A stretch of 64,000 bases of DNA from a candidate division WOR-1 bacterium RIFOXYB2_FULL_36_35 (GCA_001771505.1 MEUA01000010.1:3532-67531); one strand, 5' to 3'; counted from the first letter of the stretch, positions 2,263 through 58,818 are shown. A program made the numbers and translations. Notes: generated by a model from the sequence alone, not told the origin.

Positions 2263-2285
2263 ACCCTGATTATGATAACCGGGGG
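2263..2285. repeat. Degenerate family-1 palindromic element (CCCTGATTA-TGA-TAACCGGGG)
   Basis: Imperfect inverted repeat resembling the AACCCCGATTA/TAATCGGGGTT family, immediately upstream of the 256-aa ORF start. Confidence 0.35.
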
Positions 2286-2447
2286 ATTCATCCCTTCACT
2301 TTTATTTTTTCTCGGGATTCCAATAAAATTTCAGGCCAAAAAGGATCGTGTCAATTCTATTTAGACTCTCGAGATTTATTTCATCTTCATTTATCTTAAG
2401 CATTGATTTTTCTATAGTTTATTATCGATTCTCAAAAAAATAAATTT

Positions 2448-2470
2448 CACCCCGATTAGGAAATCGGGGT
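2448..2470. repeat. Family-1 palindromic element (CACCCCGATTA-GGAAA-TCGGGGT)
   Basis: Inverted repeat CCCCGATTA...TCGGGG in the intergenic gap between ispE (3' end) and the 256-aa ORF (5' end). Confidence 0.6.
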
Positions 2471-2575
2471 TCAGGGGAAAAAAGAGAGTGTTGCAAAATG
2501 CTTATTTTTGAAAAAGATAAATTTACCAACAGTCCCAAGAAGGGAAAAAGAAAGAAAGTAAAAAAAACATTGAGC

Positions 2576-3457
2576 TTATTCTTTTATTCCAACATTCATG
2601 CCCTCTACAACAAAACTTTGAGAATATTTCTTTTTTATCTCCTCACAAATTTCATAAGCTTTTTTCTTATCACAAACAAGTCCGAAAACCGAAGAACCAG
2701 AGCCAGACATAAGAGATTGCAAACAACCTAAACTTAAAAGCCTGTTTTTGATCTCTCCTATCTCATGGTGTTTTGGTAAAACAACTTTTTCAAGATCATT
2801 TTTTAATACTAATTCCCCATGCTGTAAAAATCCATCAATATAGTTTTCTTTTTCGATAAAAGACTTCTCAAAACTATCATAAACTGATTTTGTTAAGATC
2901 GATAGCTTGGGTTTAACTAAAACGTAATATTTTGTTTCTCCATCATAAGATTCTGTCTCATCAGCACAAAATTTTGTGCCACTATTATCTATTTTTTCTA
3001 CAAGCTCACCCCTCCCTCTGCACCGGCAAAAACCTCCCGTCAAACAAAAAGAGACATCCGACCCTATTTGGGCTCCTAGCTCTAAAAGTTCTTTTTCTGA
3101 CAAATTGGCGTCAAACAACCTATTTAACCCGATTAAAACAGCCGCAGCATCGGAAGAGGCGCCTCCAAGTCCGGCTTCAGTCGGAATATTTTTTCTGATA
3201 TCAATCTTAACGCTAGGCTCTAATTTAGTTTTATAAAAAAACAGCTCTGCAGCTTTGTAAGCAGTATTTCTCTTGTCATTAGGAATGTTTGGATCATTTA
3301 AAAAAAGTTCAATGCCGGATTTTTTTTTATCAACTAAAATTTCATCATATAATGAAACGGACTGCATTAAAGAATCTATTTCATGATAACCATCCGCCCG
3401 TTTACCTAAAATTTGAAGTATGAAATTTATCTTTGCAAAAGCTTTTAATTTTATCAC
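2576..3457 (-). CDS. ispE: 4-diphosphocytidyl-2-C-methyl-D-erythritol kinase
   Basis: GHMP kinase. N-terminus KAFAKINFILQILGKRADGYHEIDSLMQSVSLYDEI matches the IspE signature and the ATP-binding loop IPTEAGLGGASSDAAAVL is present. Confidence 0.85.
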   Translation of the reverse strand: MIKLKAFAKINFILQILGKRADGYHEIDSLMQSVSLYDEILVDKKKSGIELFLNDPNIPNDKRNTAYKAAELFFYKTKLEPSVKIDIRKNIPTEAGLGGASSDAAAVLIGLNRLFDANLSEKELLELGAQIGSDVSFCLTGGFCRCRGRGELVEKIDNSGTKFCADETESYDGETKYYVLVKPKLSILTKSVYDSFEKSFIEKENYIDGFLQHGELVLKNDLEKVVLPKHHEIGEIKNRLLSLGCLQSLMSGSGSSVFGLVCDKKKAYEICEEIKKKYSQSFVVEGMNVGIKE

Positions 3458-3693
3458 TTAGAAGAAGTCAGTTTCATTAACTTAGATTTTTTACGGGATG
3501 CCAGATTTTTAGAAATGACTTTTTTACTTGCGGCTTTATCAAGAGCTTTTATGGCTTTGCGAATATCTTCGGTTGATTTTGTCTTTAACGCAGCCTTTAA
3601 TCCCTTTCTTATCGCATCCTTGTAAACCAAATTTCTTTTTCTGTTTCTTGCCGTAATTTTTATTCTTTTAATCGCAGACTTAATATTAGCCAT
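3454..3693 (-). CDS. rpsT: 30S ribosomal protein S20
   Basis: MANIKSAIKRIKITARNRKRNLVYKDAIR is the canonical basic, helical N-terminus of S20. Overlaps ispE by 4 nt. Confidence 0.85.
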   Translation of the reverse strand: MANIKSAIKRIKITARNRKRNLVYKDAIRKGLKAALKTKSTEDIRKAIKALDKAASKKVISKNLASRKKSKLMKLTSSK

Positions 3694-3846
3694 CTATTCC
3701 TCCTATTTAACCTCTTTCAAAAACCTTCTTGACAAATTAAACATCAAAACTGTATAATTTTAACATATGTAAAAAAATCTCGCAACCAATTTGGCTTTCA
3801 GATCCACGCTTTTCGTTATTTCCAAAGAAAAAAATAAAGAGGTAAA

Positions 3847-4707
3847 ATGTCAATCCACGAATGGTTTCTAAGAAAAAAAACAGAAAAACAACAAAAAAAT
3901 GGCGCATCAGAAAGACTAAATATTCCCGAAAATCTATGGCTTAAATGCCCTTCCTGCAAATCAACAATATACATAAAAGAGTTAAATGAAAACTTAAAAG
4001 TTTGCCCGAAATGCGATTTTCATTTTAGGCTTTCAGCATCAGAAAGAATAAACCTGATTATAGACTCCGGAACATTTAAAGAGATGTCTATAACTCTCAA
4101 GTCTACTGATTTTTTAGGCTTTGTAGACTCCAAAGCCTATAACAAAAGAATAGATGAAGCCATACTAAAGTCAGGCTTAAACGAAGCGATTGTTATCGGA
4201 GAAGGCTTAATAGAAAATATTAAAACTGTTTTTGGAGTGATGGATTTTTCTTTTATGGGTGGAAGTATGGGTTCTGGAGTCGGAGAAAAATTCACAAGAA
4301 TGATAGAGCATTCAATAGAAAATAAAATCCCGGCAATAATTGCAACCTCTTCCGGAGGAGCTAGAATGCAAGAAGGTATTTTGTCTTTAATGCAAATGGC
4401 AAAAGTATCCGCAGCCCTTGGTCGTTTGAGAGAAAATGGGCTTCCTTATATAGTGTTATTAACCGATCCGACAACAGGAGGAACAACAGCAAGCTTTGCA
4501 ATGCTCGGAGATATTCAAATAGCCGAACCTAAAGCATTAATCGGGTTCGCGGGGCCTAGAGTCATAGAACAAACGATTCGGCAAAAACTGCCAAAAGGAT
4601 TTCAACGTTCCGAATTTTTACTGGAACATGGAATGATCGATTTAATCTGTGAAAGAAAAGACATAAAAAGCACATTAGCAAAAATTCTCAGGTTTTTTGA
4701 AGAGTAG
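3847..4707 (+). CDS. accD: Acetyl-CoA carboxylase carboxyltransferase subunit beta
   Basis: N-terminal zinc ribbon CPSC...CPKC, followed by a carboxyltransferase domain (MGGSMGSGVGEKF). Confidence 0.9.
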   Translation: MSIHEWFLRKKTEKQQKNGASERLNIPENLWLKCPSCKSTIYIKELNENLKVCPKCDFHFRLSASERINLIIDSGTFKEMSITLKSTDFLGFVDSKAYNKRIDEAILKSGLNEAIVIGEGLIENIKTVFGVMDFSFMGGSMGSGVGEKFTRMIEHSIENKIPAIIATSSGGARMQEGILSLMQMAKVSAALGRLRENGLPYIVLLTDPTTGGTTASFAMLGDIQIAEPKALIGFAGPRVIEQTIRQKLPKGFQRSEFLLEHGMIDLICERKDIKSTLAKILRFFEE

Positions 4708-4723
4708 GCGAAAAGAATTAATT

Positions 4724-5698
4724 ATGAAAGAAATAAATAACGAAACAAAAAACTTACTCTACTTTGAAAAAGATTTAAAAGACCTTTATCAAAAGATTAC
4801 TGAACTACAAAAACTTTCAGAAAAAGAAGATTTAAATCTGGAAGAAGAAATACGCATGGTAAAAAAACGTATAGACACCATGCGTCAGGAAATTTTCAAT
4901 AAATTGGAGCCGCAGCAAATTGTTCAAGTGGCACGTCATATAATGAGACCTTCCACCCTAGATTACATAAATTTTATTTTTGAAGATTTTATAGAACTTC
5001 ACGGCGACAGAAATTTCGGGGACGACAAAGCCATTGTCTGCGGAATAGCCAAGCTAAACGGACAATCAATTGTAATTATAGGACATCAAAAAGGCCATAC
5101 AACAAAAGAACTTATAAACAGGAATTTCGGAATGGCTCATCCGGAAGGATATCGTAAAGCTTTGAGAATTATGAGAATGGCCGTACGCGCAAACAAGCCC
5201 ATCATAAGTTTTATAGATACCCCAGGCGCTTATCCGGGAATCGGAGCGGAAGAAAGAGGTCAATCAGAAGCTATCGCAAAAAATTTAAGAGAAATGTCTA
5301 TTTTTACTGTTCCTTTTATAAGTATAATCACCGGCGAAGGCGGAAGTGGCGGAGCTTTGGGTATATCTATGGGGAACAGAGTTTTAATGATGGAATATTC
5401 AATATATGCTGTAATATCACCGGAAGGATGCGCGTCAATTCTTTTTAGAGATTCGAGCAGGGCAAATGAAGCGGCAAAAGTTTCAAAAATAACAGCAAAA
5501 GATCTGCTTGGATTTGGTATAATAGATGAAATAATCAAAGAACCGATTGGCGGCGCCCATAATGACTATGAGGCAACTGCTAAAAACATTAAAACAGCTA
5601 TACTAAAAAACCTTAATGAACTTTCAAAATTTTCTCCCAGAGAATTGGTTGCGGACCGTTATAATAAATACAGAAAAATGGGAATTTTTACAGAATAA
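4724..5698 (+). CDS. accA: Acetyl-CoA carboxylase carboxyltransferase subunit alpha
   Basis: Carries the AccA motifs FGMAHPEGYRKALRIMRMA and PIISFIDTPGAYPGIGAEERGQ. Overlaps accD; the track ORF begins at 4697 but the Met at 4724 is the likely start. Confidence 0.9.
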   Translation: MKEINNETKNLLYFEKDLKDLYQKITELQKLSEKEDLNLEEEIRMVKKRIDTMRQEIFNKLEPQQIVQVARHIMRPSTLDYINFIFEDFIELHGDRNFGDDKAIVCGIAKLNGQSIVIIGHQKGHTTKELINRNFGMAHPEGYRKALRIMRMAVRANKPIISFIDTPGAYPGIGAEERGQSEAIAKNLREMSIFTVPFISIITGEGGSGGALGISMGNRVLMMEYSIYAVISPEGCASILFRDSSRANEAAKVSKITAKDLLGFGIIDEIIKEPIGGAHNDYEATAKNIKTAILKNLNELSKFSPRELVADRYNKYRKMGIFTE

Positions 5699-5724
5699 GT
5701 TTTTGATTTATGTTTATTAAAATT

Positions 5725-5809
5725 GCCGAAGTGGCGGAACTGGCAGACGCGCACGACTCAAAATCGTGAGCTCCTTGCGGGCGTGAGGGTTCGACTCCCT
5801 CCTTCGGCA
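5725..5809 (+). tRNA. tRNA-Leu, anticodon CAA
   Basis: Acceptor stem GCCGAAG/CTTCGGC, D-arm GGCGGAACTGGCAGACGC, anticodon loop gactCAAaatc and a long variable arm. T-arm GGTTCGACTCCC. CCA is not encoded. Confidence 0.85.
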
Positions 5810-5829
5810 TTTCATTTGTGCCAAAAATT

Positions 5830-5913
5830 GCCGAGATGGCGGAACTGGCAGACGCGCTACATTCAGGATGTAGTAGGAGCAATCCTGTCGGAGTTCAAAT
5901 CTCCGTCTCGGCA
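5830..5913 (+). tRNA. tRNA-Leu, anticodon CAG
   Basis: Acceptor stem GCCGAGA/TCTCGGC, anticodon loop cattCAGgatg, long variable arm, T-arm GAGTTCAAATCTCC. Lies 20 nt after the first tRNA-Leu. Confidence 0.85.
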
Positions 5914-5943
5914 CTATTTAAAAATCTTAGTAGGAGGTAAAAA

Positions 5944-7191
5944 ATGGATATTGTAGAACTGGAAAGACAAACACTGCAGGAATTATACGGGGTGGCAAAA
6001 CAACTAAATATTCAAGGTTTCAGGGTATTAAAAAAACATGATTTAATTTTTAAAATATTGGAAACGCAAACCCAAAAAAACGGCAATCAATTTATCCCAA
6101 AAGGAATTCTAGAAATACTGCCTGAAGGATACGGGTTTTTAAGAACCGGAGGGTATCTTCCTTCAAGAGAAGATATCTACGTATCACAAACACAAATCAG
6201 AAGATTTGATATGCAAAATGGAGATCTTGTGTCAGGACAAGTCAGACCCCCAAAGGATGGAGAAAAATATTATTCATTGCTTAAAATTGAAGCTATAAAC
6301 GGGATGAATCCGGATGAAGCCAGGGAAAGGACCCCATTTGAAAATTTAACTCCGATTTTTCCTTTAGAGCGCTTTACACTAGAACATGCCAAATGTTCTA
6401 TGGCGTCAAGACTGATAGATCTTTTATCTCCTGTAGGAAAAGGACAAAGAGCGATGATTGTATCTCCACCAAAAGCAGGGAAAACCACCATTCTCAAAAA
6501 TATTGCAAATAGTATTGCTGTTAATTTCCCTGAAACGGTCATTAAAGTTCTACTAATTGATGAACGACCGGAAGAAGTAACTGACATGGAAAGAAGTGTA
6601 AAAGGAGAAGTAATAGGATCTACATTTGATGAACCTCCGGAAGAACACATCAAAATTGCCGAACTGGTTTTAGAATCAGCAAAAAGACAAGTTGAATGTA
6701 AAAAAGACGTTATCATATTACTTGATTCAATTACCCGATTGGCACGTGCCTACAATTTGGTCACACCCCCTTCAGGAAGAACGCTTTCTGGAGGTTTAGA
6801 CCCAACATGTTTGCACCGGCCAAAAAGATTTTTTGGCGCAGCACGCAACATTGAAGAAGGAGGAAGTTTAACTATCGTAGCAACCGCTCTTGTGGAAACA
6901 GGAAGCCGTATGGATGATGTTATATATGAAGAATTTAAAGGAACAGGAAATATGGAACTCCATTTGGCAAGAAAACTCGCAGATAGAAGGATTTACCCGG
7001 CAATAGACATAAAAATGTCAGGAACAAGAAGAGAAGAACTTCTATTATCAGAAAAAGAGATACAAAAAATGTGGTTGCTTAGAAAAATTATGGGGGATTA
7101 TGATGAAATAGAAGCCACAGGACAACTTATAGACAGATTAAAAGAATTTAAAACAAATAAAGCATTTCTTGAATCTGCAGATGTAAAATGA
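5944..7191 (+). CDS. rho: Transcription termination factor Rho
   Basis: Rho N-terminal domain plus RNA-binding region (YGFLR, DIYVS), Walker [17 protein letters not shown], and a RecA-like C-terminal domain. Confidence 0.9.
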
Positions 7192-7192
7192 A

Positions 7193-7375
7193 ATGCCCAA
7201 AATTATAAAGGAATTATGCCCTCAAAACCATGTATGCCCATGCATTAACATCTGTCCTGTTAACGCAATAAAACAAAAAGGTTTTGAGCTTCCAGAAATA
7301 AACAAAGAAATATGTATTAATTGCAATAAATGTATAATCTTTTGTCCTAGAAACGCTATACAAAAAGATTCATAG
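7193..7375 (+). CDS. Small 4Fe-4S ferredoxin-like protein (60 aa)
   Basis: One canonical CxxCxxCxxxCP motif (CINCNKCIIFCP) plus an atypical N-terminal Cys cluster CPQNHVCPCINICP. Starts 1 nt after the rho stop. Confidence 0.45.
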   Translation: MPKIIKELCPQNHVCPCINICPVNAIKQKGFELPEINKEICINCNKCIIFCPRNAIQKDS

Positions 7376-7387
7376 GGAGATATAAAA

Positions 7388-7924
7388 ATGCAAAAAAAAC
7401 TTAAAATAATATTACTAATAATGCTTCTCATGATAGGATTCTTTGTCATAAAAAGCATTTCACCCCGATTATTCACCTCGATTAGAAAATCGGGTCTCAT
7501 AGTAGAAAGAATTTCAAGCCCCGATTATCAATCGAGGTTAGTTTCTGATTCTATCGTGAACAATCGGGGTTCATACACCCCTCAAGTAAAAGAAAATATA
7601 GCACAGCAATTGTCTGTCGCGCTCAAAAAAAACCTTCCTGTAATTGCAAAATTGGGCGCTGATTGGTGCCCCCCATGTCGTGAAATGAAACCCATTTTAC
7701 AAGAACTGAAAATAGAACTTAATGGAAAGGCTATTGTTTTAGATTTAGATATTGACCAAAACAAAGATTTGGCAAAAAAGCATAAAATCAACGCAATCCC
7801 AACAACTTTATTTTATAATTCCAAAGGGGAATTCAAGAAAAAAATTATCGGATTTATTGATAAAAAACAGATCTTACGGGAACTGGATAACTTACAATCA
7901 AAAGATCCTTTATTGAACAACTGA
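7388..7924 (+). CDS. Membrane-anchored thioredoxin-family protein
   Basis: N-terminal TM helix LKIILLIMLLMIGFFVI and a thioredoxin fold with WCPPCREM active site. The linker between them (7461-7570) is encoded by two family-1 palindromic elements. Confidence 0.65.
   Translation: MQKKLKIILLIMLLMIGFFVIKSISPRLFTSIRKSGLIVERISSPDYQSRLVSDSIVNNRGSYTPQVKENIAQQLSVALKKNLPVIAKLGADWCPPCREMKPILQELKIELNGKAIVLDLDIDQNKDLAKKHKINAIPTTLFYNSKGEFKKKIIGFIDKKQILRELDNLQSKDPLLNN
7461..7570. repeat. Two adjacent family-1 palindromic elements embedded in the thioredoxin CDS
   Basis: CACCCCGATTATTCACCTCGATTAGAAAATCGGGTCTC (7461-7498) and GCCCCGATTATCAATCGAGG...GAACAATCGGGGT (7518-7570), in-frame within ORF 7388-7924. 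Confidence 0.7.
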
Positions 7925-7997
7925 CAAGTTACCACCAACACAACTACTTATTTCTTGTAAAAAATCCCATCTTTTGATATAATTATTTATACAACAA

Positions 7998-8291
7998 ATG
8001 AAAAAAGATATTCATCCTAAATATTATAAGACAATCGCAAAGTGCGCTTGCGGCGCAGAATATGAAATCGGTTCAACAAAAGAAAAAGTTCATGTTGATA
8101 TATGTTCCGCCTGTCACCCATTGTTTACAGGCAAACAAAAAATATTAGATACAGAAGGAAGAGTCCAAAAATTTAAAAAGAAATATGCAGGAGTGGAAAC
8201 AGAAGAGCGTAAACCGCAAAAAAAACGTATTATAAAATCTAAAAGCAAAAAAGCTGTTATCAAAAAAACATCCTCAAAAGTTAAAAAGTAG
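7998..8291 (+). CDS. rpmE: 50S ribosomal protein L31 with Lys-rich C-terminal extension
   Basis: [10 protein letters not shown]...CACGAEYE...[10 protein letters not shown] is the L31 zinc-ribbon signature. An additional ~25-aa KKKR-rich tail follows. Confidence 0.85.
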
Positions 8292-8309
8292 CTTATTTAA
8301 AAATTCTCT

Positions 8310-9371: not shown

Positions 9372-9415
9372 GCTCTTATATCACACCCACCGCCAAAACA
9401 ATCCCCAAATAAAAA

Positions 9416-10224: not shown

Positions 10225-10797
10225 ATGAAAACAATAACCTTTAATCAAAAAAACTTCAAAGAAATCATTCAAACCTTAAAGCTTGGAGGCGTAATAATTT
10301 TCCCCACAGATACGGTATATGGCATTGGCACACTCATATCTAATGAGAAAGGGATTAAAAAACTTTTTGAAATTAAAAATCGACCAGTCGATAAGCCCTT
10401 TCAAGTTTTAATATCTGATCTAAAACAGATTCAACTTTTCGCAAAAGAGACAAATCAAACAGCAAAAGAGCTTATTAAAAACCATTGGCCTGGGCCATTA
10501 ACTCTTATTTTTAAAAAGAAGGCTGAAGTTTTAAATGTGATCACAGCAAATAAAGATACCATAGGATTAAGAATGCCCGACCATCCCCTACTCCTTAAAT
10601 TAATGAAAAAGACAGGTCCATTAGTTGTCTCTTCCGCAAATTTGTCAGGAAATAAACCTCCAACAAATCCTGAAGAGGTAAAAATAGAAGCAGACCTGTT
10701 ATTAAACGGTGGAAAATGCAAAATCGGACAATCATCAACAATAATAGATGTTTCAAACAACAAGCCAATCATTTTAAGAAATCAACCCCGATTATGA
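10225..10797 (+). CDS. tsaC: L-threonylcarbamoyladenylate synthase, YrdC/TsaC type
   Basis: Carries the family signature GGVIIFPTDTVYGIG and a single YrdC domain of ~190 aa. The last 5 codons and the TGA stop lie inside a family-1 palindrome. Confidence 0.8.
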   Translation: MKTITFNQKNFKEIIQTLKLGGVIIFPTDTVYGIGTLISNEKGIKKLFEIKNRPVDKPFQVLISDLKQIQLFAKETNQTAKELIKNHWPGPLTLIFKKKAEVLNVITANKDTIGLRMPDHPLLLKLMKKTGPLVVSSANLSGNKPPTNPEEVKIEADLLLNGGKCKIGQSSTIIDVSNNKPIILRNQPRL

Positions 10798-10834
10798 TAC
10801 TCGGGGTTGATTTCACTGCGAATAATCGGGGTTA
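10784..10834. repeat. Family-1 palindromic element (1.5 units) between convergent genes
   Basis: AACCCCGATTATGATACTCGGGGTT followed by GATTTCACTGCGAATAATCGGGGTTAA. It contains the stop codon of tsaC (TGA, 10795-10797) and that of the minus-strand PPIase gene (TTA at 10832-10834). Confidence 0.75.
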
Positions 10835-12232
10835 ATCTGTTACAATTTTATCAGAAACTTTCCCTGAGTTCTTTCTTAATGAGTCCTCAAAAAGCTCTCT
10901 TTTTTCAATACGAACAATTTCCTGTTTTTCCGCCAAAGCAAGTGGTTTTAAGCCTAAATCTAAAAATTCTTTTTCCAAATCTTTGTGCATCAGCTTATCA
11001 TCACCTGCAATAAGAGAAGCCCTTTTAAATTGACTTACAGCCAAATCTTTCTGGCTGTTTTTTAAATACGCTTTACCCAAAACAAGGTATATAGTAGGAT
11101 CGGCTGTTTCCAGTCGAATGGCTTCTTTATATTGAGATATCGCCTGTTTTAAATTTTTTGTATCTTCATATAAAAGCCCCAAAAAAAGCCTGTAATAAGC
11201 ATTATTTGGGTTATCCGCAATAGCTTTGTTGTATTCGGCAATCGCATCAGCAATTTGGCCTTTAAACCGTAAATCCAACGCTTTTAGACTAGGATCTAAA
11301 ATTTCGACTTTAGCATTCTTTTTTATTTCATAAAACCAATCCTGAAAAGCTTTATTCTGCTTCTCTTTTAAAACTGCCGCCTCTATGTTTTTTTCTCCAG
11401 GAATTTTCTTCAATCTGGCATCCACAACTTTTATGATATGATAACCATATTCAGTCTTTACAGGCCCGCCTATCTCGGATACTTTAAGAGAAAAGGCCAA
11501 ATCTTCAAAGGGCTTAACCATTGTCCCGGTTGAAAAAAAGCCTAAATCTCCTCCTTTATCCTTAGATCCAGGATCCTCAGAATATTTTTTGGCTAACACA
11601 GAAAAGTTTTCTCCTTTTTGAATTGCTGTTTTAATTTTTTCTATAAGTTCTTTTGCTTTTTGATCCCCGTCTTTCTCGTTTTTTACTTTCACCAGAATAT
11701 GACTTACCTTAATCTCCCTTAAATCATTCGGATTAATTTCAACAGATCCATAAATTTTTTCATTTATTTTTTTTACTAGTAAATCATCTTTAATCATTTC
11801 TTTAAATCTATCCCAAGAAATATGGGAAGACTCTATCGCCTTTTTTAATTCCGATATATTTTTTAACTTTTCCTGTTCAGCTATTTGTTTTAGAGCTTCA
11901 TTAAGTTCGTCCCTGGAAACTCGCACTTTTTTTTGCGCCTCATCCAACATAATGGAAAAATCAATTGTCTGGGAAAGCGCCATATTTTGAAGAAATAAAA
12001 TATCAGAAGGTTTAATTCTCTCAGGAAAGTTTTGCCTTAACCTTGAAAAAATATTGTTAAAAGTTATAATGTCAACTCTCTTTCCATTTACCTTCAAAAG
12101 CGCTTTGTCTTTTTCAGTAGTAGAAAACTTACTAAAACCTGAATATCCCAAACCATAAAAAATAGAAAAACTAAAAACAAAGGCAACAACAATCATTATT
12201 ATTTTCATTTTTTTTCTAAAAAAACTAAGCAT
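10832..12232 (-). CDS. Membrane-anchored PpiC-type peptidyl-prolyl isomerase with C-terminal TPR repeats (SurA/PpiD/PrsA-like)
   Basis: N-terminal TM segment. Parvulin domain (EIKVSHILVKV...GGDLGFFSTG...YGYHIIKV). TPR-like repeats at the C-terminus (AEYNKAIADNPNNAYYRLFLGLLYEDTKNLKQAISQYKEAI). Confidence 0.7.
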   Translation of the reverse strand: MLSFFRKKMKIIMIVVAFVFSFSIFYGLGYSGFSKFSTTEKDKALLKVNGKRVDIITFNNIFSRLRQNFPERIKPSDILFLQNMALSQTIDFSIMLDEAQKKVRVSRDELNEALKQIAEQEKLKNISELKKAIESSHISWDRFKEMIKDDLLVKKINEKIYGSVEINPNDLREIKVSHILVKVKNEKDGDQKAKELIEKIKTAIQKGENFSVLAKKYSEDPGSKDKGGDLGFFSTGTMVKPFEDLAFSLKVSEIGGPVKTEYGYHIIKVVDARLKKIPGEKNIEAAVLKEKQNKAFQDWFYEIKKNAKVEILDPSLKALDLRFKGQIADAIAEYNKAIADNPNNAYYRLFLGLLYEDTKNLKQAISQYKEAIRLETADPTIYLVLGKAYLKNSQKDLAVSQFKRASLIAGDDKLMHKDLEKEFLDLGLKPLALAEKQEIVRIEKRELFEDSLRKNSGKVSDKIVTD

Positions 12233-15125: not shown

Positions 15126-15226
15126 CTCCTTTAAGAAAATATAAACCTTTTTGAAATTTTAACATAAATATAAAGAGGCAGCAAGGAAATAGAAAAGAAT
15201 TCATCACGTCTCGGCTTCCATTTTAT

Positions 15227-15253
15227 GGACCCCGATTAGGATAATCGGGGTCC
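15227..15253. repeat. Family-1 palindromic element (GGACCCCGATTA-GGA-TAATCGGGGTCC)
   Basis: Perfect 12-bp arms with a 3-nt loop, intergenic between the 5' end of glyA and the 3' end of the 223-aa ORF. Confidence 0.8.
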
Positions 15254-15305
15254 ATTTATTAACAAATCTTAGAAAACCACGACAAATTTTATGCTATTCG
15301 TGTAA

Positions 15306-16648: not shown

Positions 16649-16738
16649 TTCGAATAAAAAATAAAAAAATTTCAGTTTATTTGCAAAAAATCCGGATATA
16701 ATTTAACCCTGATTATTAGGAGGAATTTCAAACAGTCT

Positions 16739-16817
16739 TAACCCCGATTATTCATACCGTAAGTAATGTTTGACAATTTGTTAGTTATTGATTCTGGGGT
16801 GAATAATCGGGGTTAAG
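16739..16817. repeat. 78-bp family-1 MITE-like element (15-bp TIR AACCCCGATTATTCA with a ~48-bp core); copy A
   Basis: TAACCCCGATTATTCATACCGTAAGTAATGTTTGACAATTTGTTAGTTATTGATTCTGGGGTGAATAATCGGGGTTAAG. Overlaps the fliJ stop codon (TTA at 16813-16815). A degenerate half-site AACCCTGATTATTAGG lies just upstream at 16705-16720. This copy is 100% identical to the inverted copy at 57821-57898. Confidence 0.85.
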
Positions 16818-17292: not shown

Positions 17293-17308
17293 TTATTTTC
17301 TAACCCGA

Positions 17309-18619
17309 TTATTTAAAGATTTTTACCAGCCTTTTAGCCGTTTCATTAAAATCAATCTGTTCAAAAGTCCCTTGTTGCAAAAACTTATTCACCTCGTCTA
17401 TTTTAGATAAAGCATAATCAATTTTTGGATTACTCCCCTTCACATAAGCTCCGATATTAATAAGATCTTCCGCCTCATTATATCGAGCTAGAACTTCCCT
17501 TAATTTTGCGGCTGCCCCCTTATGGTCATCTTTCACAAGATTTGTCATAAGACGAGAAACACTGTGGGAAACATCAATCGCAGGATAATGGTTTCTGGCT
17601 GCAAGATCACGGGATAACATAATATGACCATCTAAAATAGAACGACACTGATCAGCAATAGGTTCATTAAAATCATCACCTTCAACTAAAATAGTGTAGA
17701 AAGCAGTAATAGAGCCTACAACAGATGTGCCTGATCGTTCCATCAGTTTTGGCAATAATGCAAAGACAGAGGGTGTATAACCTCGGGTTGTCGGAGGTTC
17801 GCCGGCCGCAAGCCCCACTTCACGCTGAGCCATTGCAAACCTTGTAACAGAATCCATCATTAAAATAACCTTATTACCCAAATCTCTAAAATACTCGGCA
17901 ATCGCAGTCGCGACAAAAGCCGCTTTCAACCTAATAAGTGGAGGCTGATCGGAGGTTGCAACAACTACCACAGATTTTTTCAACCCTTCTTCGCCTAAAG
18001 ATTCTTCTATAAAATCTCTTACTTCTCTTCCACGCTCTCCAACTAAAGCAATAACGTTTACTTCTGCTTCCGCATTACGTGCAATCATACCCATAAGTGT
18101 AGATTTGCCAACGCCAGACCCTGCGAAGATACCCATGCGTTGGCCTCGCCCAATAGTCAATAACCCATCTATAGCGCGAACCCCTACTTTTAATATTTCT
18201 GTTACTCTGGGACGTTTTACAGGGTCCGGAGGTTCTGCAAAAAGGGATCTGTCTTTTTCTCCGACAATTTGCCCTTTTCCATCAATGGGTTCCCCCAGTC
18301 CGCTTAAAACTCTACCTAATACATGTTTACCGACTTGAACCATAAGAGGCCTTCCTGCAGCCAGGACCTGAGAACCTGGAGATATACCGTAAGTTGAACC
18401 AAGGGGCATTAATAAAACTCTCTTTTCCCTAAAACCGACAACCTCAGCATAAGATTCACGATCCTCTTTTTCTACCCGTATAACACATAAGTCTCCAACA
18501 GAAACACCCTGAACCTGAGCCTCTATTATAAGCCCCACAACCTGAACTACTTTGCCTATAACTTTTATAAGATCTGTCTTTTCGATAGCACGGTAATACT
18601 TTTCAATATCAATTACCAT
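17309..18619 (-). CDS. fliI: Flagellum-specific ATPase FliI
   Basis: F1/T3SS-ATPase family with Walker A GIFAGSGVGKSTL and Walker B region VILMMDSVTRFA. Sits in the flagellar operon. Confidence 0.9.
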   Translation of the reverse strand: MVIDIEKYYRAIEKTDLIKVIGKVVQVVGLIIEAQVQGVSVGDLCVIRVEKEDRESYAEVVGFREKRVLLMPLGSTYGISPGSQVLAAGRPLMVQVGKHVLGRVLSGLGEPIDGKGQIVGEKDRSLFAEPPDPVKRPRVTEILKVGVRAIDGLLTIGRGQRMGIFAGSGVGKSTLMGMIARNAEAEVNVIALVGERGREVRDFIEESLGEEGLKKSVVVVATSDQPPLIRLKAAFVATAIAEYFRDLGNKVILMMDSVTRFAMAQREVGLAAGEPPTTRGYTPSVFALLPKLMERSGTSVVGSITAFYTILVEGDDFNEPIADQCRSILDGHIMLSRDLAARNHYPAIDVSHSVSRLMTNLVKDDHKGAAAKLREVLARYNEAEDLINIGAYVKGSNPKIDYALSKIDEVNKFLQQGTFEQIDFNETAKRLVKIFK

Positions 18620-27983: not shown

Positions 27984-28057
27984 TTAAAATTTTGTATGTT
28001 TTTTTTGAAATTAAACTCTTCTTTTGCTGATAATAAACTATAGGGGAATCAAAGCTT

Positions 28058-28098
28058 AACCCCGATTATCTTTATTGGGGAAAATAATCGGGATTAAT
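28058..28098. repeat. Family-1 palindromic element in the divergent promoter region
   Basis: TTAACCCCGATTATC-TTTATTGGGGAAAA-TAATCGGGATTAA, between flgF (minus) and the 587-aa gene (plus). Confidence 0.7.
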
Positions 28099-42945: not shown

Positions 42946-43812
42946 ATGAAATCTCCTCAAATATTATTCGAAATATACTTAGATATGTATTTAACTCAAT
43001 CATATAAAGCATCCTATAGCTCTGAATTATATAATCCCCATTTGCAAAGATATTTACTTAGAGCAGCACAATTACGTACTCACGGAGATTCAAGCGGTTC
43101 AAGCCTATCAACAAGAACTCTAATAGAATCAAATCTACTGTTAGTGGTAAGTATTGCACACGAACACCATTTATCAACTGGTTACCCATTGGATGACCTA
43201 ATACAAGAAGGAAATATAGGCCTTTTTAATGCCGCTCAAACATTCATTCCGTCCAAAGACACAAAATTTTCTACTTATGCCGCAAACGGAATTACAAAAG
43301 CAATACGAACAAAACTAAAAGCATTAAGAAAATATCAAAGAGAAGTTTCAGAAGATGAAATACCAAGACCACCATATCATCACATAACACCTGAAAAATT
43401 AATTTCTGAAAGGCTGCATTTTTATCTTAGACTAGGAAATCTCTCTTCAGAAGAAGCAGAAATAATTAAACTGACTTTGCAAGGATATGATACCCCTGAG
43501 ATAGGAGCTAAATTAGGGGTATCAAAAGCGGCTGCCGGCCAAAAAAGGACAAAAGCTTTGTTAAAATTAAAAATTATTGATGCAAAACGACTTCCGGCAA
43601 AGTTACTTTTGGATGATGTTTTTATTGAAAAATTATTTGAATATAAAGACGATCATTATCTTATCCTCAAACATGACTCTTATGAATCAATTCGTTTAGC
43701 AAAAAGCTTGATAGAAGATGAAGATTCTTTATATACAATGTTATGTATTCTGGATACAAATCACGCTCAGCAGGTAAAACGTCAAAAAATCAAATTGCGG
43801 CAGGCAGCTTAA
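42946..43812 (+). CDS. Divergent sigma-70 family sigma factor (regions 2 and 4 only) with ~80-aa C-terminal extension
   Basis: Region 2.1-2.4 (TRTLIESNLLLVVSIAHEH...LDDLIQEGNIGLFNAAQTFIPSKDTKFSTYAANGITKAIR) and region 4 HTH (EAEIIKLTLQGYDTPEIGAKLGVSKAAAGQKRTKALLKLK). Starts 24 bp after the secreted-protein gene. Confidence 0.6.
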   Translation: MKSPQILFEIYLDMYLTQSYKASYSSELYNPHLQRYLLRAAQLRTHGDSSGSSLSTRTLIESNLLLVVSIAHEHHLSTGYPLDDLIQEGNIGLFNAAQTFIPSKDTKFSTYAANGITKAIRTKLKALRKYQREVSEDEIPRPPYHHITPEKLISERLHFYLRLGNLSSEEAEIIKLTLQGYDTPEIGAKLGVSKAAAGQKRTKALLKLKIIDAKRLPAKLLLDDVFIEKLFEYKDDHYLILKHDSYESIRLAKSLIEDEDSLYTMLCILDTNHAQQVKRQKIKLRQAA

Positions 43813-43986
43813 CCCCGATGGGGCTGTTACATAATGGTCATTCCCGTGAAAACGGGAATCTATTTTTCATAAAACAACCCCGATTATAATAATCGGGGTT
43901 AAGATGGATCCCCGCTTTTGCGGGGATGACAAATTGCAAAAACTATTATTACGCAACAAGCCCCCGATTAGGATAATCGGGGTTAA
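43810..43986. repeat. Composite/nested repeat block: family-2 element interrupted by a family-1 palindrome and flanked by family-1 (half-)sites
   Basis: AACCCCGAT half-site (43810-43820). Family-2 copy (43822-43960, TIR-like GGCTGTTACATAATGGTCA ... ACGCAACAAG, hairpins ATTCCCGTGAAAACGGGAAT and ATCCCCGCTTTTGCGGGGAT). Inside it, a perfect family-1 AACCCCGATTA-TAA-TAATCGGGGTT (43876-43900). Then CCCCCGATTA-GGA-TAATCGGGGTTAA (43961-43986). Confidence 0.8.
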
Positions 43987-51403: not shown

Positions 51404-51800
51404 CTTTACCCCCGAAAGAATAATGCTTATGTCCAAAATAACTAGTAATAATAACAAGCCCTATGACAAAAATTTGCGCAATAACAGGACTTATTTTAAA
51501 AAACTCGACAATAACCGGCAACAAAACTAAATTCAAAATAAAAGCCACTCCGTAAACAAGATAAAACCTAATATATTCCTTCAAATAATCTCCTTTTGTC
51601 TTAAAAACAAAAAATTTATATCCGACATATGCGTTAGTTATGCTCAAAATGTTGCTGATCACCAGCAAAAAAAGATAATGAACATACAAAGAAAACAAGT
51701 AATACAATAAAACAAAAGAACCATAACCAAAAATTGTATTCCAAACACCTACAAGTAAATACGCGATTTTTTCTTTATGATTTATTAAAATTTTCTTCAC
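51396..51800 (-). CDS. GtrA-family small polytopic membrane protein (polysaccharide-associated)
   Basis: 134 aa with 4 TM helices and a GtrA-like N-terminus (YLLVGVWNTIFGYGSFVLLY). Confidence 0.6.
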   Translation of the reverse strand: MKKILINHKEKIAYLLVGVWNTIFGYGSFVLLYYLFSLYVHYLFLLVISNILSITNAYVGYKFFVFKTKGDYLKEYIRFYLVYGVAFILNLVLLPVIVEFFKISPVIAQIFVIGLVIITSYFGHKHYSFGGKDV

Positions 51801-51808
51801 ATTAATTT

Positions 51809-52738: not shown

Positions 52739-52755
52739 ATTAAAAAATCTCCATT

Positions 52756-55684: not shown

Positions 55685-55695
55685 AATTAATCAAA

Positions 55696-56151
55696 TTAAA
55701 AAATGATTGTATATGCTAATACAGCGGTAATAACTCCCAAAAGTCCTCCGATAAAAACTTCAAAAGGAGTATGGCCTATAAGCTCTTTCATTTTTTCCTT
55801 TTCAGAAACTTTTTCCGAGTATATATCTTCTATGATTTTATTGAGTACAACAGCCTGCTGACCCGCCGCAAAACGAACCCCCATAGCATCATACATAACA
55901 ATAATTGAAAAAACCACAGCTACCGCAAAAATAGGAGATGAAAACCCTTCCGTTAAACCTATCATAAGAGTCATCGCGGACGACATGGACGAATGGGTAG
56001 AAGGCATCCCCGCGGCTTGAAAAAAATGGCTGGGATTAAATTCTTTATCCTTAAAATAATAATAAATTATTTTTAAAGTTTGAGAAAGCAAAAAAGCAAT
56101 TCCACCTGTTAGCAGCGGCACATTTGATAAAAGCATTGTTATCGTATTCAT
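55696..56151 (-). CDS. DUF212 / divergent PAP2-family membrane protein (YuiD-like)
   Basis: 151 aa with a GMPSTHSSM motif and four TM helices. Confidence 0.65.
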   Translation of the reverse strand: MNTITMLLSNVPLLTGGIAFLLSQTLKIIYYYFKDKEFNPSHFFQAAGMPSTHSSMSSAMTLMIGLTEGFSSPIFAVAVVFSIIVMYDAMGVRFAAGQQAVVLNKIIEDIYSEKVSEKEKMKELIGHTPFEVFIGGLLGVITAVLAYTIIF

Positions 56152-56179
56152 TTATTTAAAACTCCATTTAAAAATTTGA

Positions 56180-56294
56180 GACTGTTGCGTAATGACAGTT
56201 TTTGCGATTTGTCATCCCCGCGAAAGCGGAGATCCATTTTGTTTCCTGAGAAATAGATTCCCGTTTTCACGGGAATGACCATTTCGCAACAGTC
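56180..56294. repeat. Family-2 MITE-like element (115 bp, imperfect 17-19-bp TIRs GACTGTTGCGTAATGACAG / TGACCATTTCGCAACAGTC, two internal hairpins)
   Basis: Contains the hairpins ATCCCCGCGAAAGCGGAGAT and ATTCCCGTTTTCACGGGAAT. Homologous, in inverted orientation, to 43822-43960. Confidence 0.8.
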
Positions 56295-56321
56295 CCAATT
56301 TAGTAAATAAGCAATGAGTTA

Positions 56322-57167
56322 TCACTTTTCCCTGTTTACCACAAAATCAGCCAATAAAACCAAATTTTCAGCCTTTTTACCAAATTGATTCAAAGCTTTT
56401 TTTGCCTTTTTTGAATGAAAAGAAGCCATTTTTTTTGCTTCTTCCACCCCTAAAATTGAAACATAAGTCGATTTCTTATTTTTTTCATCCAACCCGGCAG
56501 GCTTTCCTAATGCTTTACTGTCAGACGTTGCGTCTAGTATATCATCAGCTATTTGAAATGCCAACCCCAAATGATATCCATAATTAGAAAAGGCTTTTAA
56601 TTGCTTATCTTTGGCTCCTCCCAAAATTCCCCCGATTTTTAAAGATGCCTGTACAAGAGCCGCTGTTTTCAAAAGATGCATCTCTCTTAATTTTTTCAAA
56701 CCAACGTTTTTCCTTTCTGCCTGTATATCTATAACCTGACCATATACAACATTAATTAAAGCGCGGGACAAGCAAGAGATAACCTGCGCCACCTTCGCGG
56801 GTTTACAATTTTTTGCAATTACTTCAAATGCAAGAGTATTTAAAGCGTCTCCCGCCAACAACGCTATATCTTCACCAAAAATTTTATGACAGGACGGTTT
56901 CCCTCGTCTCAAATCAGAATTATCCATACAGGGAAGATCATCATGTATTAAAGTAAAGGTGTGGATCATTTCTATGGCGCAAGCAGCGGGAATTACATCG
57001 GCTTTTTTGCCACCGCAAATTTTACAGGCCTCCAGGGACAAATAAGAACGGAATCTTTTGCCGCCAATCATAGCTGAATATCTCATGGCAGAAGACAAAG
57101 ATGATTTATCTTTCGGGAGATATCTTTTTAGCGCGGCATCTATCTGTTTTATAAATATTTTGTCCAC
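56322..57167 (-). CDS. ispA: Polyprenyl diphosphate synthase (farnesyl/geranylgeranyl diphosphate synthase)
   Basis: FARM LIHDDLPCMDNSDLRRGKP and SARM FQIADDILD motifs. Confidence 0.8.
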   Translation of the reverse strand: MDKIFIKQIDAALKRYLPKDKSSLSSAMRYSAMIGGKRFRSYLSLEACKICGGKKADVIPAACAIEMIHTFTLIHDDLPCMDNSDLRRGKPSCHKIFGEDIALLAGDALNTLAFEVIAKNCKPAKVAQVISCLSRALINVVYGQVIDIQAERKNVGLKKLREMHLLKTAALVQASLKIGGILGGAKDKQLKAFSNYGYHLGLAFQIADDILDATSDSKALGKPAGLDEKNKKSTYVSILGVEEAKKMASFHSKKAKKALNQFGKKAENLVLLADFVVNREK

Positions 57168-57211
57168 TGACTAAATTATTGCATAAGATAAGATTATGGG
57201 CAAATATTTTA

Positions 57212-57248
57212 GCCCGAATTATTACATCGGAATAAATAATCGGGATTA
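57212..57248. repeat. Degenerate family-1 palindrome (CCCGAATTATT...AATAATCGGGATTAA)
   Basis: Imperfect arms. Lies between the 3' end of the 184-aa ORF and the 5' end of ispA. Confidence 0.4.
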
Positions 57249-57800
57249 ATATATTATGCGTGACGAATCAATCATTACACCGGCGCCAAACATAAGGTGA
57301 TCGGAATTTGTCATCTCTAATATGCCAACGTAATAAACATCTTCATCCTCGGTCTTTGAAATAACAAGAGCGTCCTGCCCTCGTTTAGTTAAAATTCCAT
57401 TCATAGCAAGATCGGAAGAGCAAGCTACAAGATTTATTATTTCAAGTTGATGTTGTTCTCTCAGTAAATAAACCACGGAGTTACTAGCATCACCAGAACA
57501 ATCCAATATTGAATTAACAAAATGACTATTAGCTGTTTTCAGGATTACAATTAGTTCTGGTATGTCAGCAGATGGGAATCTTGTACAAATAACTTCTAAA
57601 GAATGAACTTCTCCTCTAGACCTTGGATGTCCAAAATGTGGATGCATAGTCAATCCTCCAATTAATCTTTTCATTAATGGTGAATCTGTCTCTCTAGGCA
57701 TAACAGGAAACTCCAACCCATTACTTCTTCGTTTAAAAGTAGAGACTGGACTCTTTCCAATGTCTGTAGACCTAAAACCTGAATTAATTTGTATTGACAT
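57246..57800 (-). CDS. Hypothetical protein, 184 aa
   Basis: ORF flanked on both sides by family-1 elements. No motif recognised. Confidence 0.4.
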   Translation of the reverse strand: MSIQINSGFRSTDIGKSPVSTFKRRSNGLEFPVMPRETDSPLMKRLIGGLTMHPHFGHPRSRGEVHSLEVICTRFPSADIPELIVILKTANSHFVNSILDCSGDASNSVVYLLREQHQLEIINLVACSSDLAMNGILTKRGQDALVISKTEDEDVYYVGILEMTNSDHLMFGAGVMIDSSRIIY

Positions 57801-57820
57801 AATTAGCTCCTTTTTTATAT

Positions 57821-57898
57821 TAACCCCGATTATTCACCCCAGAATCAATAACTAACAAATTGTCAAACATTACTTACGGTATGAATAATCGGGGTTAA
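57821..57898. repeat. 78-bp family-1 MITE-like element, copy B (inverted orientation relative to copy A at 16739-16817)
   Basis: Reverse complement is 100% identical over 78 nt to 16740-16817. TTAA is present at both ends. Confidence 0.85.
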
Positions 57899-58032
57899 CC
57901 CCTCTTTTTAAGTTTTCGAGATTAATTAAGATAAATTTCAGGCGATTTTATTTTTTTCTCAAAAGAGGGACTGTTTAATTTTGATTAATAGAAAATTTTA
58001 TAGGGATCGGAATTAAACATTTCACAAAAAAG

Positions 58033-58413
58033 CTAGTGGTTTGAGATAGAACTCAACAAGGCTTCAAAATGTTTAACCGTATTTGGTAACTCCAAGAAAA
58101 CTTCTTCTGCTGTCTTTTCATAATATGTATGACTTGTTTCATTTCGCATGTCAACAATATCCAACCATGCTTCATCATAAGTTATTATTCCTTGCCGATA
58201 CGCTTCACGAAAACATTCTTTTGGAGAAGCACAAACAATCCCCTTTTTATCTTCCAGATATGCTTTTAATGCTTTCCATGAAAGGTCAAGTGTAAACTCA
58301 AATCTTTGAATGGCAGAATCACGAACAATGTCATTTCTTGGTATATTTAAAACTTCTTTGAGACGTAAAAGAGCCCTTGAAAATTGTTGAACTAAAGCTT
58401 CAGTTTTTGTCAT
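58033..58413 (-). CDS. HEPN-superfamily nucleotidyltransferase substrate-binding protein (HI0074 family); putative toxin of MNT/HEPN pair 1
   Basis: RDSAIQRFEFTLDLSWKALKAYLE is the NTase_sub_bind family core. Adjacent to the minimal nucleotidyltransferase gene. Confidence 0.7.
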   Translation of the reverse strand: MTKTEALVQQFSRALLRLKEVLNIPRNDIVRDSAIQRFEFTLDLSWKALKAYLEDKKGIVCASPKECFREAYRQGIITYDEAWLDIVDMRNETSHTYYEKTAEEVFLELPNTVKHFEALLSSISNH

Positions 58414-58424
58414 GTTTTTTGAAA

Positions 58425-58787
58425 TTATAAGATTTTCTCGATATTTTGTAAAGCTATTTTTTTAAAGTCAGAAGAGACATTTTTAAAATCCACAAAATCT
58501 ATTTTATACAGTATTCTAATGTTTTTCATCTCTTCTCTTATATTTCTCATTATTTCTCTTGAAATCTTTTCTTCTCCTTCTATGCCTATATCAATGTCAG
58601 ATCTGTCATCTTTTGCCCCAATAACACGAGAACCAAAAAAGAAAATTTTATATTTAGAAACATCCAAATACTTTTCAAGAATGCTTAAAATATCTTTTTT
58701 TATCTTTAAAACAGGATAATTCTTTAGATACATATTGTGTAATATTATCATCAAAGATAAAGGTTGGCAATTTTTCCCGTGATACAA
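58425..58787 (-). CDS. Minimal nucleotidyltransferase (MNT); putative antitoxin of pair 1
   Basis: GS...D.D motif (IFFFGSRVIGAKDDRSDIDIGIE). The true start may be an internal Met (MYLKN...). Confidence 0.7.
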   Translation of the reverse strand: MYHGKNCQPLSLMIILHNMYLKNYPVLKIKKDILSILEKYLDVSKYKIFFFGSRVIGAKDDRSDIDIGIEGEEKISREIMRNIREEMKNIRILYKIDFVDFKNVSSDFKKIALQNIEKIL

Positions 58788-58793
58788 ATTGTT

Positions 58794-58818
58794 AACCCCG
58801 ATTATCCTAATCGGGGTT
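58794..58818. repeat. Family-1 palindromic element (TTAACCCCGATTA-TCC-TAATCGGGGTTAA)
   Basis: Perfect arms, with a loop complementary to the GGA-loop copies. Overlaps the hisF stop codon (TTA at 58817-58819). Confidence 0.8.

Follow-up and report, generated by a model that had tools for sequence, protein, structure and literature searches.

The DNA considered here is a 64,000-nt stretch (hereafter the window) of the genome of candidate division WOR-1 bacterium RIFOXYB2_FULL_36_35 (GCA_001771505.1, MEUA01000010.1:3532-67531), in which a family of short palindromic repeats is dispersed among the genes of an ordinary chromosome: rho, prfA, rpmE, accAD, glyA, ftsEX, surA, pheST and dxs, together with flagellar and polysaccharide genes. 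The G+C content is about 35%, and an Rfam scan of the window returned two tRNA-Leu genes and nothing else. The motif AACCCCGATTA occurs 23 times in the window at no more than one mismatch, as against 1.17 +/- 1.03 in dinucleotide-preserving shuffles of the window, the highest of which reached 4; for the 9-mer core CCCCGATTA the count at the same threshold is 34, with 10.3 expected. The density amounts to 0.36 arms per kb. An earlier note on this sequence had listed copies of the family, and every coordinate in its list carries the sequence it gave; its estimate of about one copy per 5 kb holds for clusters, which are often nested composites, but not for single elements.

The family extends well beyond the window. 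A metagenome scan with the pattern ACCCCGATTA-N3-33-TAATCGGGGT returned at least 114 stretches, and among the matches listed at least 40 loci of about 35-39% G+C, each with at least three arms, belong to long contigs from a small number of samples. The window and 40 of these low-G+C loci among the matches listed, about 0.36 Mb of non-redundant sequence, form the sample for the arm count and for the searches for open reading frames (ORFs) and motifs given below. They hold 223 arms in 359 kb, a figure that is biased upward because the loci were chosen by the pattern itself. The further copies for which the earlier note had proposed to search were thus found, and the family is genome-wide; it was right that these are not regulatory sites of one operon. 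The Rho protein of the window is 100% identical to that of the WOR-1 (Candidatus Saganbacteria) genome RIFOXYA2_FULL_36_21, a groundwater bacterium from an aquifer metagenome, and a second element-rich contig, the only one checked, encodes a protein annotated in that same metagenome-assembled genome (MAG). In GTDB representative genomes 84 stretches (88 loci) were matched, almost all of them once only. All but one are bidirectional terminators, in which an A tract, a hairpin whose stem is long and variable and a T tract follow each other, and they are single-copy and lie in unrelated taxa; we rejected them as relatives of the family and regard them as chance background. The single match of another kind, a copy flanked by TTAA, is in WOR-1 RIFOXYB2_FULL_37_13. 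A scan of viral contigs gave nothing relevant, and the motif was not found in a relevant context in the literature searched.

All members of the family terminate in a 9-bp inverted repeat, CCCCGATTA ... TAATCGGGG. The commonest are minimal hairpins with a loop of 2-3 nt, whose core is either 21 bp, CCCCGATTA-NNN-TAATCGGGG, or 20 bp (CCCCGATT-TCC-TAATCGGGG and similar). Among 69 unique minimal copies the loop is GGA/TCC in 30, CC/GG in 12, TGA/TCA in 11 and TAA/TTA in 8. Long elements have 13-bp ends, CCCCGATTATTCA ... TGAATAATCGGGG, around cores of about 71 bp; their interiors are of three types or more (A, B and C), which are unrelated or weakly related to each other. There are further core-length variants of 34-107 bp, as well as composites in which a hairpin is nested beside an arm of a long element. 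None of the cores, at 20-107 bp, encodes an ORF of its own. When the elements are folded as single-stranded DNA, the energies are -12.5 to -15.2 kcal/mol for the minimal hairpins and -21.5 kcal/mol for the long element. The z values against shuffles range from -6 to -8, so the elements fold far better than shuffled sequence.

The sequence next to the ends reveals how the elements were inserted. We compared the 4 nt immediately outside the CCCC...GGGG core of the long elements, collapsing composites that had propagated as such, which left 18 independent copies. Identical tetranucleotides are found on both sides of 17 of these: ten have TTAA/TTAA and seven have non-palindromic direct repeats (TTCA in three, TAAA in two, TGAA and TTTA in one each), while the remaining copy matches at three of four positions; inverted flanks do not occur. 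When the right flanks were permuted, direct non-palindromic matches averaged 0.89, and in none of 50,000 permutations did they reach 7. It had been left open earlier whether TTAA is part of the terminal inverted repeat (TIR) or a target-site signature. As the copies without TTAA bear other direct tetranucleotides (TTCA, TGAA, TAAA, TTTA), TTAA is the target-site duplication and not part of the TIR. Insertion takes place at T-N-N-A and duplicates these 4 bp; TTAA is the preferred site, and TTCA/TGAA and TAAA/TTTA serve as well. The 37 solo minimal hairpins have direct non-palindromic flanks in 10 cases, where 3.9 are expected (p = 0.00045), TTAA/TTAA in 6 and inverted flanks in 7; the inverted flanks merely lengthen the stem.

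Copies inside genes give independent support for the 4-bp duplication, and show purifying selection on insertions, because in all three such copies the core plus 4 is divisible by 3 (107+4 = 111, 20+4 = 24 and 20+4 = 24 nt). The first of these is a composite miniature inverted-repeat transposable element (MITE) at 7459-7573, with a 107-bp core (7463-7569), a TTCA/TTCA duplication and 111 nt in all. It lies in frame in the ORF of a membrane-anchored thioredoxin (7388-7924; alignment A4). The N-terminal anchor and the Trx domain can both be aligned with the protein of the sister genome; the insertion falls into the linker that joins them, where the sister protein is without the extra residues. 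The sequences at 7461-7498 and 7518-7570, previously taken for separate copies, are present as described but belong to this one composite, with TTCA on its two sides. Outside the window, a 1217-aa protein and a 568-codon ORF are each extended by 24 nt, which add ...EPRLENRGE... and ...EPRLGNRGE...; these in-frame hairpin inserts, with a 20-bp core plus 4, lie at 6373-6396 of locus L183 and at 4120-4143 of locus L184, the latter of which may be upstream of the true start codon. The 1217-aa protein is hypothetical protein A2230_03680 of RIFOXYA2_FULL_36_21, for which a search of 5.8 billion proteins found no homologue. The family is thus not exclusively extragenic.

Insertion at the end of genes is a second way in which the elements touch coding sequence. 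Stop codons are overlapped by 9 of the 69 hairpins, an enrichment over the approximately 1.8% per strand of background TTAA/TGAA sites. Both targets, TTAA and TGAA, include a stop codon that is restored by the duplication, as is seen in the window for surA, fliJ, a gene of 184 aa and a hisF-like gene. At 10782-10835 a 46-bp element (core 10786-10831) occupies the gap between the convergent genes sua5 and surA; the TGA of its loop is the stop codon of sua5, and the stop codon of surA (10832-10834) is the TAA within the TTAA on its right flank. Nothing but the element lies between the two genes, and sua5/yciO ends in the hairpin, whose arm and loop (10784-10797) provide its final four codons and its TGA stop. 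The long type-A MITE at 16738-16816 (plus strand; 71-bp core 16742-16812, 13-bp TIRs CCCCGATTATTCA, TTAA/TTAA duplication) supplies the TAA stop of fliJ with its right TTAA. A degenerate 33-bp element, CCCGAATTA...TAATCGGGA plus TTAA, at 57213-57249 does the same for the 184-aa gene, and so does a minimal hairpin at 58792-58820 (21-bp core 58796-58816, TCC loop, TTAA/TTAA flanks) for the hisF-like gene.

Evidence of mobility comes from a second MITE, here called MITE 'B', which is unrelated to the hairpin family. It is 115-119 bp long, has the TIR GGGRCTGTTGCRTAAT and 5-bp AT-rich duplications (AATTT, ATAAA, ATAGA, ACGTT, ATATA), contains two internal GC hairpins (CATTCCCGTGAAAACGGGAATC and GGATCCCCGCTTTCGCGGGGATG), and is present in at least 12 copies (in the window at 43820-43963 and 56178-56296, and in loci L161, L184, L168, L203, L124, L204, L200, L113 and L156; alignment A1). 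Five copies are empty and read ...CAGAAAAC followed directly by AAGATGG..., while in seven filled copies exactly AACCCCGATTATAATAATCGGGGTT is added at that point, so that the two forms differ by precisely one 25-bp palindrome. The window has an example of each. The copy at 43820-43963 (plus strand, 144 bp, 5-bp duplication CCGAT) is filled, its palindrome lying at 43876-43900, exactly the 25 bp that are missing from five other copies of MITE 'B'; the copy at 56178-56296 (minus strand, AATTT/AATTT duplication) is the empty form. The palindrome at 43876-43900 had been listed as a copy of the family, and it is one, nested within a different MITE.

MITE 'B' both takes hairpin insertions and itself enters hairpins and long elements. 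The filled copy just described interrupts a 21-bp hairpin of the family, whose left piece (TTAA + CCCCGAT) is at 43809-43819 and whose right piece (CCGATTAGGATAATCGGGG + TTAA) is at 43964-43986, both on the plus strand. Removal of 43820-43968 in silico gives TTAA-CCCCGATTAGGATAATCGGGG-TTAA, a perfect hairpin. The half copy at 43810-43820 and the copy at 43961-43986 of the earlier list therefore have the right sequence but are not separate; they are the two pieces of this one hairpin.

Members of the family also enter one another. Long elements of types A, B and C occur both with ...GGTATGAA joined directly to TAATCGGGG and as ...TGAA (CCCCGATTTCCTAATCGGGG TGAA) TAATCGGGG, that is, with a hairpin and a second TGAA added, and the mirror arrangement, a hairpin at the TTCA of the left end, is found as well. 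Since the hairpins sit at the same arm-adjacent site in all three types, several independent hits are required. There is also a type-B long element within a type-A element, with a TAAA duplication. Paralogous empty sites are thus seen both in MITE 'B' and in long elements. These nested copies bear on the idea that the minimal hairpins are immobile relics, left when the interior of a long MITE was lost by deletion or by recombination between its inverted ends. Such an origin would account for the termini and the spectrum of flanking tetranucleotides, which are the same as those of the long elements, and arms flanked by TTCA...TGAA on both sides do resemble recombination products of nested copies; furthermore, transposases of the DDE type should, by inference, struggle with ends that are 2-3 bp apart. 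However, independent deletions would leave heterogeneous junctions, whereas the loops fall into a few discrete classes, with GGA/TCC in 30 of 69. GGA/TCC is moreover not derivable from the TTCA...TGAA subterminal sequence, and three types of long element have hairpins nested at one and the same TGAA/TTCA position. We consider it quite unlikely that the minimal hairpins arose as relics.

Comparison with relatives shows the family to be lineage-specific. In the sister genome RIFOXYC2_FULL_37_10, whose Rho is 93% identical, no hairpin is present in 19 kb of syntenic sequence from rpsT to sua5, where the window has four sites, and a Saganbacteria contig with a Rho of 87% identity has no hairpin either. 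Base-precise orthologous empty sites were not obtained, the intergenic DNA of the sister genome being too diverged to align.

The absence from a syntenic region with the same genes also argues against hairpins that are maintained by selection for a function, be it as terminators, as stabilisers of mRNA 3′-ends or as palindromic sites for a regulator or nucleoid protein. The observations that could suggest such a function are the several window copies that adjoin stop codons (10832, 16813, 57246 and 58817), the enrichment of stop-codon overlap (9/69) and the three copies flagged as terminator-like. Most copies, on the other hand, have no T tract. Only three window hairpins pass even a loose terminator scan, all with weak T tails (one of them at 2446-2473, flagged on the minus strand), and terminator-like sites are not enriched (21 vs 15.7 +/- 4.5 and 20 vs 13.3 +/- 4.2). 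Of 82 clusters 65 are intergenic, and by crude ORF-based gene calls they are divided among divergent, tandem and convergent spacers as 29%, 49% and 22%, where the corresponding shares of spacer length are 33%, 50% and 17%. As the split tracks spacer length, the clusters neither prefer the 3′-ends of genes nor avoid promoter regions, and the claim that these are not classical intrinsic terminators stands. Copies are furthermore found inside ORFs and inside other repeats. We therefore hold selection for a hairpin function to be very improbable. Operator or regulon sites and CRISPR-like arrays were likewise rejected, as copies are nested, duplicated, intragenic or absent in a relative. The simplest reading is that the elements are selfish DNA tolerated where it is harmless, and a role as RNA hairpins, if any, would be secondary.

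The motif, a 9-11-mer that is over-represented and often found downstream of genes in inverted pairs, could also call to mind DNA uptake sequences (DUS, or the similar uptake signal sequences), which have this arrangement in Neisseria. The arms of the present family are, however, paired or located in MITEs and almost never occur singly or as plain motifs in coding sequence. Uptake sequences would not account for the duplications, the filled and empty sites and the absence from a close relative, and we give this explanation hardly any credence.

The earlier claim that the window has no transposase holds: none was found in the Pfam annotation of the called genes, in an NCBIfam scan of eight unannotated ORFs or in a Pfam scan of two ORFs. 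Across the window and the 40 loci there are no multi-copy ORFs, and no ORF matched a regular expression for the HUH-Y motif. ORFs between inverted long TIRs 0.4-4 kb apart are housekeeping genes only, and the contig ends checked for a TIR plus insertion sequence (IS) DNA had none. A hidden Markov model for IS1380 transposases, run on six-frame translations of all fetched low-G+C loci, found no match and no remnant.

The IS1380 family is nevertheless the one suggested by the CC(CC) tips and by a 4-bp duplication that resembles TTAA. IS1380 elements have CC-initial ends and produce duplications of 4-5 bp, and their eukaryotic relative piggyBac has CCC-initial ends and TTAA as its target; the present family has both a 4-bp duplication and CCCC tips. 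IS1380-family transposases do occur in Saganbacteria, including the sister genome (NF033539, 260 bits). The elements that carry them (L206 16491-17801 and L209-L212) are about 1.6-1.7 kb long, and the contigs of many homologues themselves measure about 1.6 kb, as is typical when repeats have been collapsed. IS1380 transposases have been used as the prokaryotic outgroup to piggyBac (PMC10813416). We infer an IS1380/piggyBac-like DDE enzyme as the candidate for the mobilising activity.

We consider it likely that the repeats constitute a family of non-autonomous DNA transposons, i.e., MITEs, in a Ca. Saganbacteria (WOR-1) genome, and one with ultra-short members. They are non-coding, have TIRs, duplicate their target, are present in many copies and show insertion polymorphism, which is what defines a MITE structurally. 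The elements would be moved in trans by a DDE-type transposase that makes a 4-bp staggered cut at T-N-N-A, such a cut being what the co-varying 4-bp flanks indicate. Insertions persist in any non-coding DNA, at stop codons, which are regenerated, and within ORFs only if core + 4 = 3n, and elements also enter one another and another MITE family.

The earlier note had described the family as of REP or MITE type. That it is mobile is borne out, and between the two we favor a MITE moved by a DDE-type enzyme with target duplication over repetitive extragenic palindromic (REP) sequences and their transposases. With the latter, as in REP doublets (REPINs), a REP-associated tyrosine transposase (RAYT), an HUH/Y1 enzyme resembling those of IS200/IS605, would recognise the hairpins in single-stranded form and disperse them, and the flanking tetranucleotide would take the place of GTAG as the site of recognition or cleavage. 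Several features recall this arrangement. The hairpins are very short and stable (-12 to -15 kcal/mol as DNA, z of about -6 to -7), and clusters of tandem and inverted arms resemble bacterial interspersed mosaic elements (BIMEs) and REPINs. The flank pairs of the short hairpins are a mixture of direct and inverted, and the insert in MITE 'B' consists of the core and 4 nt on one side with no full duplication, as in an IS200/IS605-like insertion 3′ of a target tetranucleotide. However, HUH/Y1 transposition (IS200/IS605, RAYT) produces no target duplication, whereas the left and right tetranucleotides of the long members co-vary (TTCA, TAAA, TGAA, TTTA), which amounts to a duplication. There is furthermore no constant GTAG-like tetranucleotide, the flanks varying among TTAA, TTCA, TGAA and TAAA; neither an ORF with an HUH-Y1 motif nor a RAYT was found in the 0.36 Mb; copies also occur within ORFs; and the palindromes are perfect rather than imperfect. 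For these reasons we find a REP/REPIN-type origin improbable, even though REP/REPIN-RAYT systems share with the present family palindromes of 20-40 nt, hundreds of copies, clusters of direct and inverted repeats and the character of non-autonomous mobile DNA (PMC3116915).

Some of our observations sit uneasily with a MITE family moved by a DDE enzyme. No transposase bearing the ends of the family was found in the window and the 40 loci, and the IS1380 copies examined in Saganbacteria end in CCCAAGnnCCGAnATAG, in one case in CCCAAGCCCCGATATAG, and in no case in CCCCGATTATTCA, so that a CCCGAT(A/T) stretch alone is common to IS1380 and MITE ends. The flanks of the minimal hairpins give a mixed signal, with seven inverted non-palindromic pairs beside the ten direct ones. 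The lone clean insertion into MITE 'B' is flanked by ACAA/TTAA, a duplication of at most 2 bp. Between strains that are 99% identical over 18 kb there is no insertion difference at any element, which leaves current activity unproven. Finally, a DDE transpososome assembled on 9-bp ends 2-3 bp apart is physically awkward, and such ends are an unlikely DDE substrate; the short forms may therefore move by another route, or some of them may be long elements that have collapsed. We put forward only tentatively, as a possibility rather than an expectation, that the 20-21-bp palindromes are themselves the transposing unit, moved either by the enzyme of the long MITEs or by a route specific to hairpins.

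That a genome should hold a MITE or REP family is in itself nothing unusual. Like the bacterial MITEs Correia/NEMIS, RUP and Nezha, the elements described here are small and non-coding, with TIRs and a duplication of fixed length, and occur in many copies in both orientations; nesting, stable hairpins and occasional stop codons or in-frame copies are also shared. Typical MITEs are, however, about 50-400 bp long, whereas here the commonest core is 20-21 bp and consists of just two 9-bp ends, and no parent IS with the ends of the family was found in the roughly 0.36 Mb sampled. IS1380/piggyBac elements are alike in the 4-bp duplication and the CC/CCC tips, and IS1380 transposases are at hand in Saganbacteria, but the ends of the IS1380 copies examined there are unlike and the sampled sequence holds no IS1380 remnant. 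Rickettsia palindromic elements, too, are palindromic repeats tolerated in frame in genes, as here in a thioredoxin linker and two large ORFs. They are about 100-150 bp long and of unrelated sequence, whereas in the present family a minority of copies lie in ORFs, with the frame fit resulting from core + 4 = 3n.

The closest analogue of the minimal forms are the SDRs of Nostocaceae, small dispersed repeats that are said to have been described originally by Elhai et al. in 2008 (Genome Res 18:1484). In the accounts cited here, SDR1-8 are very small mobile repeats of 21-27 nt with precise insertion positions (PMC5861425, PMC3116915), SDR5 targets the HIP1 sequence (PMC4390886), and SDRs are reported to be absent from those HIP1-enriched cyanobacterial genomes outside Nostocaceae that were examined (PMC5861425, PMC4390886, PMC3116915). 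SDRs and the minimal hairpins are alike in their size of about 21-27 nt and in that insertion is recognised by comparing sites with and without the repeat. The hosts are distantly connected, as Margulisiibacteriota/Saganbacteria are usually regarded as a sister lineage of Cyanobacteria. The repeats differ in sequence, in target (T-N-N-A here, HIP1 for SDR5) and in host, which here is not a cyanobacterium. A further difference is that the tiny elements described here have the same ends and 4-bp flanks as bona fide MITEs, and this provides a mechanistic handle.

The dominant members of the family are at the lower size limit of mobile DNA, and their ends and target flanks are those of ordinary MITEs of the same genome. 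The shared ends offer a testable hypothesis on the origin and movement of very small mobile repeats, a question that is open for the cyanobacterial SDRs. If the minimal palindromes do transpose, they would rank as the smallest transposons for which end sequence and target duplication are defined, and as a mechanistically tractable counterpart, outside Nostocaceae, of the unexplained 21-27-nt SDRs. From the nesting, the interrupted elements that can be rebuilt and the frame rule, the size of the duplication is evident within the sequence itself with unusual clarity. The family also documents recent transposon activity in the uncultivated candidate phylum Saganbacteria. For the assembly and annotation of MAGs it should be kept in mind that these repeats make stop codons, C-terminal extensions and in-frame insertions; they are also potential strain markers.

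Similar hairpins are found in other organisms. Four loci of 41-45% G+C (L092, L097, L138 and L169) and one of 56% G+C (L191) hold densely clustered hairpins that have the 9-nt core of the family but longer arms, e.g., GACCCCGATTAGG...CCTAATCGGGGTC and GGGGACAGACCCCGATTA..., and some of them show paired changes in both arms (CCCTGATTA/TAATCAGGG, CCCCAATTA/TAATTGGGG). Judged by sequence, this suggests that the 9-nt core could be a recognition sequence common to related mobile elements of several lineages. Pfam scans of the ORFs adjoining the hairpins in the organism of 56% G+C found no transposase.

The remaining copies in the window are as follows. A degenerate 21-bp hairpin, CCCTGATTA TGA TAACCGGGG, lies at 2264-2284, 10 nt upstream of the start of a minus-strand gene of 256 aa. 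The minimal hairpin at 2446-2473, mentioned above for its weak T tail, has a 20-bp core (2450-2469, CCCCGATTAGGAAATCGGGG) and TTCA/TTCA flanks, and is located downstream of ispE. Another minimal hairpin at 15226-15254 (21-bp core 15230-15250, GGA loop) has the inverted flanks TGGA/TCCA, by which its stem is extended to 14 bp. At 16703-16719, on the plus strand, a solo left arm, TTAA-CCCTGATTA-TTAG with one mismatch, is probably a remnant, and the half copy reported at 17301-17314, in the stop region of fliI, has a mismatch to the motif and may be due to chance. A 34-bp element with TTAA/TTAA flanks at 28056-28097 (core 28060-28093) is found in the divergent promoter region between flgF and a gene of 587 aa. 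A second long type-A MITE is at 57820-57898 (minus strand, 71-bp core 57824-57894, TTAA/TTAA duplication); as the copies listed earlier at 16739-16817 and 57821-57898 are mutually reverse-complementary, they represent the same 71-bp-core element in two orientations.

The type-A element holds a promoter-like pair, TTGTCA-N18-AATAAT (10/12), directed outward via its right end (16747-16776 on the minus strand, 57860-57889 on the plus strand). At 16.7 kb the pair faces the downstream 192-aa gene and at 57.8 kb it is antisense; it may be a product of chance. Around the hisF-like gene are two adjacent pairs of genes for a Polbeta nucleotidyltransferase and an NTase_sub_bind (HepT-like) protein (58033-58787 and 59857-60526), probably MNT-HEPN toxin-antitoxin modules, and there are elements of the family on either side of the first pair. 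Between rho and the thioredoxin gene an uncalled ORF of 59 aa (7193-7372, plus strand) encodes a ferredoxin-like CxxCxxCxxxCP motif (CINCNKCIIFCP), with no evident counterpart in the rho-trx spacer of the sister genome RIFOXYC2_FULL_37_10. The differences between the window and the 99%-identical strain (ENA ERZ27254852, k141_620870; locus L090) are concentrated at 61.3-62.1 kb. In that strain an unalignable segment of about 2 kb, with a 653-aa YadA_head/Peptidase_S74 gene, replaces 62126-63722, which lies within a 537-aa Peptidase_S74 ORF (62093-63706) of the window; the region 61285-63722 is a strain-variable surface or tail-fibre-like locus.

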